From IMG/VR virus record IMGVR_UViG_2681813313_000009: a stretch of 5,423 nt of DNA; one strand, written 5' to 3'. The notes beneath the pieces were generated by a model. The model was not told the DNA's origin, made no database searches, and saw nothing but the letters and a program-made list of their open reading frames with translations. Positions 1 through 5,423 of the stretch are shown here, piece by piece. Both the position numbers and the translations under genes were made by a program. The stretch's first letter is position 1. Each line of letters begins with the position of its first letter. Source of the DNA: a virus. Lineage: Duplodnaviria; Heunggongvirae; Uroviricota; Caudoviricetes.

Positions 1-60
1 CCGGCAGAAGCAGAAAAAGCTTATTATGCTTCCATCGGAAACGATGATCTGGCAGCCTGA
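1..60 (+). CDS. Possible 3' end of a gene starting upstream of the window (partial; C-terminus ...PAEAEKAYYASIGNDDLAA)
   Basis: Plus frame 1 is open from nt 1 to a TGA at 58-60. Only 19 codons are visible, and two minus-strand frames are also open across the same 60 bp, so coding status is unresolved. Confidence 0.15.
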   Translation, partial: PAEAEKAYYASIGNDDLAA

Positions 61-62
61 GT

Positions 63-1151
63 TCACAGATAAAACACTCTCCAGGAAACCCGGGGCGGTT
101 CATTCAGAACATCCAGTAGATTTTCCGCAGGTACACGATGGGCGTTATCCAGAACCAGCACCAAGGTGGTACCCTGCTCTTTCAGGTAGGTATCAAAACT
201 CCTAAGAGCCTCAAAACCACTGGCACCGGGGAGCAAAATCCTGCGCAAACCGTCTTGGTCACGGGCTGTAAATCTAGCAGCCATCTCGCGCACCAGCGTA
301 CTGGCCAGAGCTGGACCGGGAAGATCACCGGTGTCGTAATAAGCACAAAGTGCAGTGGAGTGTAATGCGGCCTGTGCGGCCCAAGCTGTCTTGCCTGCAC
401 CTGAGAGTCCACAAAGGATACGGATCCGCTCACCAGATGTGAGAGAAGGTTCTTCGTTCTGTGGGCGGTACAGTGCTGGTGGTGCAGGAAAGTCCTGTAG
501 CTGAACGATCAACTGTTCAAATAGTTCAGTAAGTTCTTCCGTGAAAAACGTATGTTGTCCATTGGTATCGCCTCCGGTGGCGGCAAGCTGAACCAATCCT
601 GCTAACTTCCAAATCAAGGATTCTGGGGACAATAGTGAAAATTTCAGCTTTTCTGCTTCTGCGATACACCATGTGGCCGCATCAGCCAGAGTACTCCATG
701 CGGGCGGAAGTGCCGGGTGACGTCCAGCTGTCGACTGGGGCCAGACAATAAGAACATCAGAAGGAAGCTTTTTATCGTCAATCATCTTCTGAAGCAGCGG
801 TCCAGGCGCCTGGTTTACAATAATCACAAAAGAAGCCACCCCTTCGCGGTTTGCCGAAGTATGCTCATTTCTGAGCTTTACAAATCGCTCCAGAGCCCCC
901 GACACATCGTTGGGCATAATAGGTTTTGAACGGGTTTTAACCTGAATGTAGAGACGTTCCTGTTTGGATTTCAGCTCAATATCCTCATCAAGCTCGACAG
1001 TTACTGAGTCCATAGCTGCCCTCTGCGCCAAAAGTAAGCAGCCTACAGCGTAAAGATGCTGGTAAAGGAACCCCCGGTGTACCGCTTCGATACGCACCAA
1101 CTGCACAGGATCCAGTACGTCCAGATTTTGTTTGTTTTCACTTCCCCACAT
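63..1151 (-). CDS. Putative defence-type protein: N-terminal PD-(D/E)xK-like nuclease region fused to a P-loop NTPase with STAND/AAA_16-like Walker A and Walker B (possibly truncated)
   Basis: 362-codon ORF with ATG at 1151-1149, an AAGGAA Shine-Dalgarno-like sequence about 6 nt upstream, and TGA at 63-65. Walker A GLSGAGKT lies at residues 248-255 (nt 387-410). A hydrophobic strand ending in Asp, LVLVLDNAH, lies at residues 330-338 (nt 138-164), 82 aa later. The N-terminal part contains ELDEDIELK...ERLYIQVK (about nt 936-989), compatible with a (D/E)xK nuclease core, and a GFLYQHLYAV segment. The ORF ends about 27 aa after the Walker B-like motif, which is short for a complete NTPase domain. 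Confidence 0.6.
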   Translation of the reverse strand: MWGSENKQNLDVLDPVQLVRIEAVHRGFLYQHLYAVGCLLLAQRAAMDSVTVELDEDIELKSKQERLYIQVKTRSKPIMPNDVSGALERFVKLRNEHTSANREGVASFVIIVNQAPGPLLQKMIDDKKLPSDVLIVWPQSTAGRHPALPPAWSTLADAATWCIAEAEKLKFSLLSPESLIWKLAGLVQLAATGGDTNGQHTFFTEELTELFEQLIVQLQDFPAPPALYRPQNEEPSLTSGERIRILCGLSGAGKTAWAAQAALHSTALCAYYDTGDLPGPALASTLVREMAARFTARDQDGLRRILLPGASGFEALRSFDTYLKEQGTTLVLVLDNAHRVPAENLLDVLNEPPRVSWRVFYL

Positions 1152-1394
1152 GACCTATTCCTTGAGCTATTTGTTTGACGGACTCACATTAGTACTTCAA
1201 TGTAATCAATTGAACTTGAATTATAATTAAAAGAGGCAAAGAAAAGTCATTTGGCCTATTCTCCGTTGATTAATACAAACTAACGATACCAACGTTCACC
1301 TAGCTCAAAGCTGACAACCAGACTAGGTCTGGGCCTGTGCCATCGAAGTGTCAATTAATATCTGAACTAATGCTCTTTAATTTCGTCACTTCAA
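1152..1394 (-). promoter_or_regulatory. AT-rich intergenic region upstream of the nuclease-NTPase gene; likely promoter/leader
   Basis: Strongly AT-rich compared with flanking coding sequence. Contains a 10-bp direct repeat TCAATTAATA (1353-1362 and 1391-1400) and ATTAAT-type palindromes. No convincing ORF. It sits immediately 5' of the ATG at 1151 on the minus strand. Confidence 0.4.
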
Positions 1395-1565
1395 TTAATA
1401 CCGAACATTTCCCTGATAAAATTCCAGTATGCGCTGCATAACTTCGCTCTGACGACACTCGCGACAAATTATATTCTGTCGTCTGTTGTAACGGCGTATT
1501 TCGCCATCTAGCAATGAATAAATCAGGTCAGGGTCGCTCTTCTTTTTCACTGCCGCTCTCGACAT
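1395..1565 (-). CDS. Possible C-terminal continuation of the 1528..1803 gene in the +1 frame (frameshift-split gene), or an independent small ORF
   Basis: The ORF-track frame 1395..1646 overlaps 1528..1803 on the same strand. The two frames cross at an A8 run (T8 on the plus strand, 1565-1572). Removing one A would fuse the N-terminal 79 codons of the upstream ORF to 57 codons of this frame (...KARKKMSRAAVKKKSDPDLIYSLLDGEIRRYNRRQNIICRECRQSEVMQRILEFYQGNVRY). No independent RBS is evident for a start at 1646 or 1565. Confidence 0.3.
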   Translation of the reverse strand: MSRAAVKKKSDPDLIYSLLDGEIRRYNRRQNIICRECRQSEVMQRILEFYQGNVRY

Positions 1566-1803
1566 TTTTTTTGCGGGCTTTTCCCCAGTCCTTACGAGCC
1601 TGCTCCGAAGGAAATATTCCATGTCCTGAACCATATACTGCGCCACTAACTACCAGCTCTTTCACCAGAACTTCTATCAGGTGTCTCGTCGCCCCGGTTT
1701 CATTTTCCAGTTGTTTACGCGTTTTTCGCCCATCTCTGCGTACCAGTTCCACAATGCGCGCCTTCACTTCTTCCCGCAGTTCGGGAGTAAAAACTTTTGC
1801 CAC
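1528..1803 (-). CDS. Small basic HTH-like protein (91 aa), function unknown
   Basis: GTG start at 1803-1801 preceded by a strong AGGAGG Shine-Dalgarno about 5 nt upstream on the minus strand (plus-strand CCTCCT at 1808-1813). The product has a helix-turn-helix-like segment (RKTRKQLENETGATRHLIEVLVKEL) and a Lys/Arg-rich tail. It lies 37 bp downstream of the rep-like gene on the same strand. Confidence 0.55.
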   Translation of the reverse strand: MAKVFTPELREEVKARIVELVRRDGRKTRKQLENETGATRHLIEVLVKELVVSGAVYGSGHGIFPSEQARKDWGKARKKNVESGSEKEERP

Positions 1804-2982: not shown

Positions 2983-3408
2983 TCAATGTACTGCCACAGC
3001 ATTTCCTGCCGGGCCACCACGGTTCATCTGATTGAAACCGGCGATTGCCACTGCGACAAAATCATCAGCGTCTCTCACCAGTCGCTCCCGCGTCTCCACC
3101 AACTCCCGAAAATAAGCTGAACTGTGGCTGCGCATTCTGGCCACCAGCAAAGGTGGCATTGCCTTTTCGATCGCTGGTAACAACGCCTGAATTTTTTCAA
3201 CTGCATCAGGGGTGTCTTTCTCTACCCAGCGGAAAATTTTCTGGGTATTGCGAGCCAGGGCTTCCGGATGGCTGTCGTCATACAGTTCAGGAAACGTCAT
3301 ACCCAACTCAAAATAAGCCTGGGTTATTCCAGCTGCTGGAACTTTTTCGCCATCAGGACGCGCCCAGGCATTCATCGCCATGCGGATGTGTTCATGCTTG
3401 ATTTTCAT
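2983..3408 (-). CDS. ydaT: YdaT-like protein (CII-analogue regulator of Rac-type prophages; historically annotated as a toxin)
   Basis: 141-aa ORF with ATG at 3408-3406 and an AGGAG Shine-Dalgarno about 8 nt upstream. It overlaps the 3' end of the upstream Cro-like gene by 17 bp. The N-terminus MKIKHEHIRMAMNAW... and the length match my recollection of the YdaT family; position immediately after a YdaS-type gene supports this. Not verified by search. Confidence 0.5.
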   Translation of the reverse strand: MKIKHEHIRMAMNAWARPDGEKVPAAGITQAYFELGMTFPELYDDSHPEALARNTQKIFRWVEKDTPDAVEKIQALLPAIEKAMPPLLVARMRSHSSAYFRELVETRERLVRDADDFVAVAIAGFNQMNRGGPAGNAVAVH

Positions 3409-3673
3409 GAATCAAGCTCCTAGTAAGTGGTTGTGTTAACGTTTTGGTATCTTCCAGCTCGGGCCAAATATTCATCCAATCAAAAGGCCTTAGTTGCTGA
3501 CGTGTAACTTCACCATTACTGGCTCGCTCAATAAGGACACATAACGATGCCCCTAACATTTGACCTTTACTCAATGCCTTTCTTAGATAACCGATGCTAG
3601 TACCACACTCACATGCAAACATACGCTGTTCATCTGACGAAAGAGAATTGAGAAATATTCTTAATTCTTCCAT
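3392..3673 (-). CDS. ydaS: YdaS-family Cro-type HTH regulator
   Basis: 93-aa ORF with ATG at 3673-3671 and an AAGGAG Shine-Dalgarno 6 nt upstream. The product contains ...CGTSIGYLRKALSKG...CVLIERASNGEVTRQQLRP..., resembling the YdaS/Cro-like family pattern (IERAT-GEV...LRP). It is transcribed divergently from a CI-like repressor gene. Confidence 0.6.
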   Translation of the reverse strand: MEELRIFLNSLSSDEQRMFACECGTSIGYLRKALSKGQMLGASLCVLIERASNGEVTRQQLRPFDWMNIWPELEDTKTLTQPLTRSLIHENQA

Positions 3674-3682
3674 AGCTACTCC

Positions 3683-3770
3683 TTAGTAAACACAGCAAAG
3701 AATACCCACAGGTAAACAAAAGTCAATACCCTTGGGTTGTTTACCTTGCGGTAATCGCATCTATTATTTA
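3683..3770. promoter_or_regulatory. Divergent promoter/operator region between the Cro-like and CI-like genes
   Basis: Repeated half-site (A/G)GTAA(A/T)C: AGTAAACA at 3685-3692, GGTAAACA at 3711-3718, inverted copy TGTTTACC at 3738-3745, and GGTAATC at 3750-3756. CAGGTAAACAA (3709-3719) and TTGTTTACCTTG (3737-3748) form an 11-12 bp inverted repeat with a 17-bp spacer. Candidate leftward promoter on the minus strand: -35 TTGACT (plus 3721-3726) and -10 TATTCT (plus 3699-3704). Candidate rightward promoter: -35 TTTACC (3740-3745), -10 TATTAT (3762-3767), placing the start at or near the ATG at 3774 (leaderless). Confidence 0.5.
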
Positions 3771-3773
3771 CCT

Positions 3774-4193
3774 ATGGACAAATATGAATTTAGACGACAA
3801 CAACTCATCAAAATTCGTGATGAGAAATGCGATGGTAAAGCGGTTAACGTGGCCAGAAAGATCGGTCGCGAGCCTTCTTATGTATCAAGAATGTTGTACC
3901 CAGAGGGGAAAAAAGGAAAAAAACGGATCGCTGATGATATGGTGGAGATTATAGAAGAGTCCTTTGGGTTACCCCGGGGATGGATGGATGGTATCGTTTC
4001 ATCATCAACGAACACAGCCTCCAATTATGAAACAAGGGTTCTAACGCCACGACAACGTATTTTTTTAGATCTCTTAGACGAACTGCCAGAAAGTGAAGCG
4101 GATAACTTATTAAAAACTCTTGAAGAGAAAAAACAGTATTACAATATGATCTACGAAGAAATCCGTAAAAAGAAAGCACAAAACGCATCATAA
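3774..4193 (+). CDS. CI-like prophage repressor (N-terminal HTH, no obvious peptidase S24 domain; RacR-like position)
   Basis: The ORF track starts at 3732 (MGCLPCGNRIYYLP...), but that extension has no RBS and is compositionally odd. The ATG at 3774 gives MDKYEFRRQQLIKIRDEKCDGKAVNVARKIGREPSYVSRM... with an HTH (AVNVARKIGREPSYVSRM) near the N-terminus. No Shine-Dalgarno, consistent with a leaderless mRNA from the adjacent TATTAT. TAA stop at 4191-4193. Divergent from the cro-like gene. Confidence 0.6.
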   Translation: MDKYEFRRQQLIKIRDEKCDGKAVNVARKIGREPSYVSRMLYPEGKKGKKRIADDMVEIIEESFGLPRGWMDGIVSSSTNTASNYETRVLTPRQRIFLDLLDELPESEADNLLKTLEEKKQYYNMIYEEIRKKKAQNAS

Positions 4194-4275: not shown

Positions 4276-4458
4276 TTCCTTTCATACCAACCCACCCCAC
4301 CCCACAGAATGCAGGGCAATACTTCGAGTTACCAGGCAGTGGTCAGGGGTTAAGTAGCCAGCCCGAGGCGTAAGAACATGACGGCAGGGTTCAACTTTAA
4401 TAACTATGCAGCAGGTTTTTGTTCCGCTACCCCGGCGTTAAGGGGAAATGAGGTCAAC

Positions 4459-4614
4459 ATGGATACTATCGATCTTGGCAACAACGAATCTCTGGTGTAC
4501 GGCGTGTTTCCCAACCAGGACGGTACGTTCACCGCGATGACGTATACCAAAAGCAAAACGTTTAAAACCGAAAATGGTGCCCGTCGCTGGCTGGAAAGAA
4601 ACTCAGGTGAGTGA
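4459..4614 (+). CDS. Small hypothetical protein (51 aa)
   Basis: The internal ATG at 4459 of the track ORF 4378..4614 is preceded by GAGGT 4-5 nt upstream. Product: MDTIDLGNNESLVYGVFPNQDGTFTAMTYTKSKTFKTENGARRWLERNSGE. The upstream extension from 4378 lacks an RBS. Position and size recall the small ydaF/ydaG-type genes beside racR in Rac, unverified. Confidence 0.5.
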   Translation: MDTIDLGNNESLVYGVFPNQDGTFTAMTYTKSKTFKTENGARRWLERNSGE

Positions 4615-4615
4615 T

Positions 4616-4744
4616 ATGGATTTCGACACAATCATGGAAAAGGCTTACGAAGAATACTTCGAAGGTCTTGCCGAAGGCGAAGAAGCTCTCAGCTTCAACG
4701 AATTTAAACAGGCGCTTTCCAGTTCGGCAAAATCTAACGGCTGA
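4616..4744 (+). CDS. Small acidic hypothetical protein (42 aa), not in the supplied ORF track
   Basis: ATG at 4616-4618 preceded by AGGTGAG (4606-4612). It starts 2 nt after the TGA of the preceding ORF, suggesting translational coupling. Translation by hand: MDFDTIMEKAYEEYFEGLAEGEEALSFNEFKQALSSSAKSNG, TGA at 4742-4744. Confidence 0.45.
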   Translation: MDFDTIMEKAYEEYFEGLAEGEEALSFNEFKQALSSSAKSNG

Positions 4745-4773
4745 TAAGCGAAACAGCACCGCGAGGAATCAGT

Positions 4774-4992
4774 ATGCAGAAACGAGAACCCGTCATCATC
4801 GCGCCAGACTATACCGATGATGAACTTTATGAGTGGATGCACCAGAAAATTAATGCAGCGCAGGATCTGAAATGGGCCAATGAAGCCAGAGCTAAGCAGG
4901 CTGAAAATCTGTCCGCTCTGGAGCAGGATATCACCAATCTGGAAAAAGCAGCGGCATTAAGCATTGCCAGAATGATTACATACCCGCGTTAG
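4774..4992 (+). CDS. Small hypothetical protein (72 aa), predicted helical
   Basis: ATG at 4774 with a GAGGAA Shine-Dalgarno 5 nt upstream (4763-4768). TAG stop at 4990-4992. The product looks protein-like (MQKREPVIIAPDYTDDELYEWMHQKINAAQDLKWANEARAKQAENLSALEQDITNLEKAAALSIARMITYPR). Same strand and tight spacing as the two preceding small ORFs. Confidence 0.5.
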   Translation: MQKREPVIIAPDYTDDELYEWMHQKINAAQDLKWANEARAKQAENLSALEQDITNLEKAAALSIARMITYPR

Positions 4993-5423
4993 TAGCTAAT
5001 CAACAAAGCTAAGGTTAGTAATTAAGGAGTTCTCCACGGGTGAGGTGGAGTGCGTGCGCCGGACACGGGTGAGCATCCGGCATTGACAGTTTACTGAAAG
5101 GATATTTCCCTGAAAAGTCAGACCATAACGCGAAAGCGCACGGCGAGGTAGCTGGTTCATAGATAGCCTGTCGTTAAATTTTCGTCGACCGTGCGCTTCC
5201 GGTTGTGGCAATCCGCGAAATGGCGCGGCGGTAAGTATGGCGGGGTTATTCCTTCCCCCGTTGAGGACACCGGGTTGTCAGGTTGACCATACGCTTAAGT
5301 GACAACCCCGCTGCAACGCCCTCTGTTATCAATTTTCTGGTGACGTTTGGCGGTATCAGTTTTACTCCGTGACTGCTCTGCCGCCCTTTTTAAAGTGAAT
5401 TTTGTGATGCGGTGAATGCGGCT
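4993..5423. other. Apparently non-coding, GC-rich region with long inverted repeats (possible regulatory site or structured RNA)
   Basis: No convincing ORF; the only track ORF here (4996..5211, minus) has Arg-rich, non-protein-like composition and no RBS. AGCGCACGG (5135-5143) pairs with CCGTGCGCT (5189-5197), a 9-bp perfect inverted repeat with a 45-bp spacer. GGGTTGTCA (5272-5280) pairs with TGACAACCC (5300-5308), 9 bp with a 19-bp spacer. A TTGACA hexamer sits at 5083-5088. Confidence 0.3.

Follow-up and report, generated by a model that had tools for sequence, protein, structure and literature searches.

Probable disruption of a putative prophage defence gene by an insertion sequence

The DNA analysed here (the window) is the 5,423-nucleotide Caudoviricetes record IMGVR_UViG_2681813313_000009, a piece of prophage whose minus strand holds at 63..1151 an ATG-initiated open reading frame (ORF) of 362 residues. 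We propose, with a probability of about 0.8, that the window carries the 5' 1,051 nt of a 2,799-nt prophage accessory gene: the intact product would be a Cap4-STAND-TPR-SEC-C immune sensor akin to the antiviral STAND (Avs) proteins, and the copy in the window has been killed by an insertion sequence (IS). Judging from the sequence, the 362-residue ORF is the front third of a 932-residue gene, interrupted after codon 350 by an IS3-family element. The initial annotation, made from the letters of the window, had taken the same ORF for a complete protein; this was wrong, as codons 1-350 of 932 are followed by 12 codons encoded by the IS.

The comparison was made by megablast of positions 1-1400 against 5,426 complete E. 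coli genomes. Fifteen genomes match positions 98-1400 at 98-99.9% identity; every one of them has a far longer gene annotated there, under the product name 'SEC-C metal-binding domain-containing protein'. For positions 1-120 the matches are loci for IS3-family transposases, at 94-97% identity and across thousands of E. coli records. In NZ_CP148579.1 (L001) the allele is intact, spans 2,799 nt and encodes 932 aa (WP_000264572.1). In a pairwise alignment with it, identity extends as far as window position 101 and none is found past it: there are 0 mismatches in the 1,051 nt from 101 to 1151, and 0 differences from the intact-allele strain in the 249-nt upstream spacer. Because no substitutions have accumulated relative to the intact allele, the inactivation is probably recent, and the window copy is most likely a recently made pseudogene, a dead gene.

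On the other side of the junction, the plus strand of positions 1-60 encodes the final 19 transposase codons and their stop (translation PAEAEKAYYASIGNDDLAA, then the stop). The terminal inverted repeat of the IS, read on the minus strand as TGAACCGCCCCGGG..., meets the gene at the junction and ends at about 101-102. In another locus (L018) the corresponding stretch forms the 3' end of a gene annotated as IS3 family transposase; the tail-fibre gene interrupted there resumes exactly at the IS end. Since identity to the intact allele stops at 101 and the window from 1 to about 102 is the end of an IS, the final 12 residues of the ORF (EPPRVSWRVFYL) and its stop are IS-encoded. From codon 351 onward the intact allele reads ACTACACATATTCG..., which lies beyond the IS cut and so is not in the window copy.

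The window is the complete 5,423-bp draft contig CXZW01000059.1 (GCA_001285525.1), which breaks off within the IS. A short draft contig with a repeat at its end could be chimeric, the gene being intact in the real genome, and this exact junction was found in no complete E. coli genome of the 5,426 searched. We nevertheless find an assembly artefact scarcely credible: the switch coincides exactly with the terminal TG... of the inverted repeat, which is where real insertions have it; three contigs, not all of one sample, carry the identical truncated 362-aa ORF; and draft contigs normally end within IS copies flanking real insertions.

The native remnant runs from the Cap4-type nuclease through the linker into the STAND nucleotide-binding domain (NBD), of which it includes the initial ~110 residues, up to and including Walker B. 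It thereby keeps the nuclease domain, the P-loop, Walker B and about half of the NBD, and is left without sensor 1, the GLPL and MHD-like motifs, the winged-helix domain (WHD), the repeat sensor and the zinc tail. Having lost these parts, the window copy should no longer be capable of normal sensing or oligomerisation.

Could the stump still function, as a free Cap4-type nuclease toxin, as a dominant-negative partner, or as one piece of a split gene, with the C-terminal piece expressed from an outward promoter of the IS? It retains the native start, the upstream region and an intact nuclease domain with every catalytic residue, and in strain AHB10, where ISEc52 has inserted into the same gene, two ORFs (200 aa and 719 aa) are still annotated. 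We consider such a function very improbable. The Cap4 domains of SeAvs3 and SeAvs7 act only once assembled by NTPase oligomerisation, and both proteins lose function when the sensor is deleted (PMC13581612). With the cut, half of the NBD fold is gone, as are the helical domain (HD) and the WHD, so folding of the P-loop domain is unlikely, and two independent IS hits in 17 copies resemble loss, not innovation. We therefore keep to the reading of the window copy as an IS-disrupted fragment.

Nuclease and nucleotide-binding motifs

On the 362-aa ORF, Pfam matches Cap4_nuclease with 27.8 bits (cut-off 26.2, residues 25-78) and AAA_22 with 29 bits (cut-off 27, residues 239-347), while AAA_16 scores under its cut-off. 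In an alignment of 71 homologs, with identity down to 49%, the nuclease residues E53, D55, D57, E59, Q70 and K72 are invariant, and so are G248, G251, G253, K254 and T255 of the P-loop; D335 and N336 of Walker B are present in 71 of 71. As the Pfam scores exceed their cut-offs and the residues are invariant in the 71 homologs, these motifs are more than chance resemblances. The N-terminal domain has the alpha-beta-beta-beta-alpha-beta core and the D...(E/Q)xK motif of Cap4/DUF4297-type PD-(D/E)xK nucleases. PADLOC matches on the ORF are confined to its N-terminus, with LmuA at 3.9e-7 and weak scores for DUF4297 and HamA.

The initial annotation had pointed to a (D/E)xK-type motif in the N-terminal third and suggested comparison with Cap4/DUF4297. 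The motif is indeed there, backed by the Pfam score and the invariant residues, and Pfam and PADLOC together place Cap4_nuclease over its cut-off and DUF4297 as a weak match. Walker A and Walker B had been reported 82 residues apart; both are present, but the distance from K254 to D335 is 81 residues. In Walker B, an Asn stands where STAND NTPases usually have a second acidic residue. From the motif, this D335-N336 pair suggests that ATP would be bound and hydrolysed slowly, poorly or not at all.

Table 1. Features of the window (nucleotide positions) and of the encoded proteins (residues).
Feature	Position	Strand	Residues	Evidence or remark
Right end of IS3-family (IS629/IS1203-like) insertion sequence	1..102	plus		megablast, translation, L018 comparison
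IS-derived ORF tail, 12 foreign codons EPPRVSWRVFYL + TGA stop	63..100	minus		alignment ends at 101; protein comparison
Native part of defence-gene remnant	101..1151	minus	codons 1-350 of 932	0 nt differences, Pfam
Cap4-type PD-(D/E)xK nuclease domain	507..1151	minus	1-215	
Predicted nuclease active site E53-x-D55-x-D57-x-E59 ... Q70-x-K72	936..995	minus		six invariant residues, Pfam Cap4_nuclease
ELDEDIELK, part of nuclease motif			53-61 of 362-aa ORF	
YIQVK, part of nuclease motif			68-72 of 362-aa ORF	
Walker A / P-loop GLSGAGKT	387..410	minus	248-255	P-loop Lys = K254; Pfam AAA_22, AAA_16
Walker B strand LVLVLD-N	144..164	minus	330-336	LVLVLDNAH = 330-338
Domain order of intact 932-aa protein			Cap4 nuclease 1-215; linker; NBD-HD-WHD ~241-540; TPR-like sensor ~541-909; SEC-C 912-931	
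AT-rich upstream spacer, DUF977 gene to defence gene	1152..1394	minus		GC content
DUF977 gene, frameshift-split	1395-1803	minus		two overlapping ORFs
DUF977 ORF, profile positions 1-83	1528-1803			
DUF977 ORF, profile positions 70-133	1395-1646			
Replication initiator	1841-2917	minus		phrog_3729, E 5.6e-253
YdaS/YdaT-like pair	2983-3673	minus		Pfam YdaT_toxin 7.3e-10; YdaS under cut-off
RacR-like repressor	3732-4193	plus		phrog_5736 6.7e-70; no Pfam match
ydfA/B/C-like ORFs	4378-4992			
DicF antisense small RNA	5335-5386	plus		76.7 bits, gathering score 48

Architecture of the intact protein

On the 932-aa protein, Pfam places Cap4_nuclease at 25-77, AAA_22 at 239-364 and SEC-C (PF02810) at 914-931. 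An AlphaFold2 model built on the 71 homologs has a mean pLDDT of 80.8. When its NTPase-repeat region was searched with Foldseek against the PDB, the top match was the archaeal STAND-TPR protein PH0952 (6mfv_A; E 4e-14, TM score 0.61 on the target), followed by plant NRC NB-ARC proteins. Across the alignment the NB-ARC signatures are kept. Besides the P-loop and the Walker B strand, they are GGLPL, a GLPL-like motif with G414 and P416 invariant, and VHD, which is MHD-like and in which H525 and D526 never vary. A STAND NTPase core is thus complete in the intact allele, NBD-HD-WHD with its P-loop, Walker B and HD and WHD motifs.

The C-terminal sensor of the intact allele consists of TPR-like helices over about 370-390 aa; ending at codon 350, the window copy lacks the repeat sensor of an Avs-type receptor. 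The SEC-C domain scores 38.8 bits against a cut-off of 20.4 and has the CxC...C(H/C) zinc knuckle, the final 20 residues matching the zinc-binding tail of SecA almost residue for residue (E 3e-5). Its C918, C920, C929 and H930 are conserved wherever the tail exists, some family members being without it; SEC-C is absent from the window copy.

At the other end of the protein stands a defence-type effector, the Cap4-like nuclease. Its closest structural relatives are all defence effectors: the SeAvs3 nuclease domain comes first with a score of 13.0 (root-mean-square deviation 2.7 Å, 164 residues), ahead of LmuA (12.6), AbCap4 (12.2), HamA (11.9), EcCap4 (11.4) and DUF4297 (8.2).

These results agree with the STAND/NB-ARC-like NTPase of the initial annotation, given the AAA_22 score over its cut-off, the conserved NB-ARC motifs and the Foldseek matches to PH0952 and NRC. 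Its proposal of a nuclease-then-STAND Avs layout also named the right domains and class, as seen from Pfam, the model and the likeness to SeAvs3. The structure prediction and search that it recommended, carried out here on the AlphaFold2 model, returned similarity to both nuclease and NTPase folds. Taken as a whole, that earlier interpretation is partly supported.

Distribution and genomic context

Carriage in E. coli is rare: 16 of the 5,426 complete genomes have the gene, all on the chromosome and always directly downstream of the DUF977 gene in a Qin/Rac-like lambdoid prophage. The adjoining replication and immunity module occurs in 270 genomes at a coverage of at least 80%. In the intact-allele prophage the gene is flanked by the DUF977 gene and hokD, and in other prophages the slot between these two holds unrelated genes. 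This neighbourhood comparison bears out the earlier suggestion of variable accessory cargo.

Full-length homologs of near-constant length (~932 aa) were retrieved by a word-indexed search from Enterobacterales, Vibrio, Shewanella, Aeromonas, Alteromonas, Pseudomonas and some beta-proteobacteria. An exhaustive profile search gave 388 clusters (50% identity) at E<=1e-30, mostly aligned end to end. The family is associated with defence islands and mobile elements. A Yersinia homolog (L011) lies beside Gabija (GajA 1e-238, GajB 8e-192) and Lamassu, one on an Enterobacter integrative and conjugative element (ICE) beside Gabija and bSEFIR, and one in Vibrio cholerae beside Gabija and AbiH; in Pseudomonas the neighbour is AbiH, as it is in Alteromonas, within the cargo of a Tn7-like element. 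Homologs are also carried by large plasmids of Klebsiella, Pseudomonas, E. coli and Agrobacterium. No PHROGs family covers the 932-aa protein, and tblastn of the phage collection found only two metagenomic records with a relative, both distant (33-40% identity); the gene is therefore uncommon among sequenced phages. Such a distribution is that expected of a single-gene defence module moving between mobile elements.

The family could instead comprise MalT-like signalling ATPases, or modules for addiction or competition between mobile genetic elements that sense plasmid or ICE proteins or host stress. Structurally, the NTPase-TPR part is best matched by archaeal PH0952 and by MalT, a transcription activator, and not by Avs proteins; plasmids, ICEs and Tn7-like elements carry the family besides prophages; and no phenotype is known for it. 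We nonetheless judge this unlikely. The DNA-binding helix-turn-helix (HTH) output domain of a MalT-like regulator is absent, the output being a Cap4-type nuclease with only defence effectors as closest structural relatives, and both the repeated adjacency to Gabija, Lamassu, bSEFIR and AbiH and the patchy, rare distribution tell against it. An anti-phage receptor remains our preferred reading of the intact family.

AbiH immediately adjoins the STAND homolog in Pseudomonas and Alteromonas and lies nearby in Vibrio (L007-L010, L015, L016, L006). This adjacency could be due to shared residence in an island or to some loose functional link. We rejected the idea of a two-gene system, since AbiH genes are found in either orientation and the E. 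coli prophage has none.

Strain AHB10 (NZ_OZ546984.1, L002) carries an independent insertion of ISEc52 in the same STAND gene (5759-7587), after about codon 200. Its position differs from that of the IS in the window, and the two ORFs left behind are annotated as 'dsDNA nuclease domain' (200 aa) and 'SEC-C' (719 aa). Two independent IS-hit copies among the 17 known in E. coli hint that the gene is costly to carry or readily lost. In the same prophage region of AHB10, RosmerTA (1180-2936; RmrA 5.5e-102, RmrT 7.5e-10) lies just past hokD; because of this second cargo, the stretch from the replication genes to Q acts as a defence-cargo hotspot.

Relation to known systems

SeAvs3 and SeAvs7 share their domain order with the intact protein, and the SeAvs3 nuclease is the closest structural relative of its effector. 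MalT, PH0952 and the NB-ARC proteins plant NRC and Apaf-1 are likewise STAND NTPases, with an identity to the intact protein of only 9-13%. Their outputs differ, HTH in MalT, a coiled coil (CC) in NRC and CARD in Apaf-1 as opposed to a nuclease here, and in contrast to all four the family resides in defence islands or mobile elements. Unlike the Cap4 (CBASS), LmuA, HamA and DUF4297 effectors, this nuclease is fused to its own STAND switch. The SEC-C tail has the same zinc motif as in SecA and YchJ and is attached here to an immune-type STAND protein, not to a translocase.

Several multi-gene assignments were rejected. For CBASS Cap4, there is no SAVED domain (Pfam, PADLOC) and no cyclase/CD-NTase gene in the prophage neighbourhood. 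For Lamassu LmuA, no LmuB (SMC-like) is adjacent, the prophage neighbours being the DUF977 gene and hokD; the LmuA/LmuB pair of the Yersinia locus is a separate adjacent system. For HamA (Hachiman) and DUF4297 (HerA-DUF4297), no HamB helicase or HerA partner lies beside the prophage gene.

PADLOC v2 (Avs1-5, PD-Lambda and others) gives no whole-protein match to the intact protein, and NCBIfam release 20 no family-level match; at domain level PADLOC finds LmuA/DUF4297/HamA at the N-terminus and E2 or PDC-S12 on the SEC-C tail. Searched with the sequence and with the 71-sequence profile, all PDB chains yielded only the SecA/YchJ zinc tail and no solved Avs chain; GajA matches at E~1 in this search were dismissed as noise. 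A literature search by SEC-C/STAND/Cap4/Avs themes, accession and product name returned nothing on this protein, and it is unmentioned in Kaur et al. 2020 and in the NAR 2026 domain-centric screen. The lactococcal 'Rugutis' SEC-C protein was set aside, its architecture being unrelated.

The survey of Lee et al. 2026, with 589 STAND clades and 684 sensor clusters, probably includes this protein; only sensors of at least 400 aa were clustered (PMC13581612). As the present sensor measures ~370-390 aa, near or below that cut-off, it may not be among the clustered ones. By domain order and structure we would group the intact protein with the Avs-type STAND nucleases in kind, leaving aside a numbered Avs family (Avs7-Avs24). 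The SEC-C tail and the Asp-Asn Walker B are features that could mark a variant.

Proposed mechanism of the intact allele

SeAvs3 and SeAvs7 rest as autoinhibited ADP-bound monomers; the TPR sensor then binds a phage protein, and ATP-dependent tetramerisation via the NTPase assembles the Cap4 domains into an active double-stranded DNA nuclease (PMC13581612). By analogy, the TPR sensor of the intact allele would keep the ADP-bound protein autoinhibited until a phage-made protein binds and the receptor opens. ATP binding would then allow the NTPase domains to oligomerise, bringing the Cap4 domains together as an active nuclease whose indiscriminate degradation of DNA would abort the infection.

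Several points weigh against this proposal. The window stops inside the IS, leaving the 3' two-thirds of the gene beyond it out of view. We infer the trigger, the oligomeric state, the nuclease activity and the anti-phage phenotype alike, and the literature search found no experiment on the family. The Cap4 match in Pfam, 54 residues long, barely exceeds its cut-off; the structure search, made with a predicted model, nevertheless strongly favours Cap4. The Asp-Asn Walker B departs from the usual STAND motif, the SEC-C tail is without counterpart in described Avs proteins, and the Avs, PD-Lambda and other models of PADLOC give no match to the NTPase or the sensor.

The SEC-C motif of SecA has two known partners, SecB and the ribosome. 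In a bolder and rather doubtful version of the proposal, the protein would represent an undescribed compact Avs lineage built on a MalT/NB-ARC-like NTPase with a hydrolysis-impaired Walker B, its SEC-C tail docking onto SecB or the ribosome and sampling new phage proteins. Docking of this sort would amount to host-factor-assisted sensing, comparable to the use of EF-Tu by SeAvs7.

The surrounding prophage

The AT-rich spacer beside the gene, already remarked upon in the initial annotation, is evident from a GC content of 0.38-0.42 over positions 1051-1500 against ~0.50 in the gene. It presumably holds the gene's own promoter; a consensus promoter/terminator scan found no sigma-70-like promoter for the gene on the minus strand of the spacer. 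The split DUF977 gene next to it is annotated as frameshifted in the intact-allele strain as well. The replication initiator ends in a C-terminal 24-residue match to the primosomal protein DnaT (E 0.0016); in this prophage the initiator gene is not followed by one for a DnaC-like loader.

Further along, the YdaS/YdaT-like pair is divergent from the RacR-like repressor, the usual layout of the immunity region in prophages of this group. Towards the end of the window lie the DicF antisense RNA and the ydfA/B/C-like ORFs; the early-left operon is therefore of the Qin/dicB type, not of the Rac type.

Significance

In annotation, the appropriate label for the 362-aa 'nuclease + ATPase' ORF is that of an IS-disrupted pseudogene fragment, not that of a complete defence gene. 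Should the intact allele prove to be an active receptor, the Avs repertoire would gain an E. coli-native Cap4-STAND sensor that is small (932 aa) and genetically tractable, with its SEC-C tail and Asp-Asn Walker B as testable departures from the described Avs mechanism.
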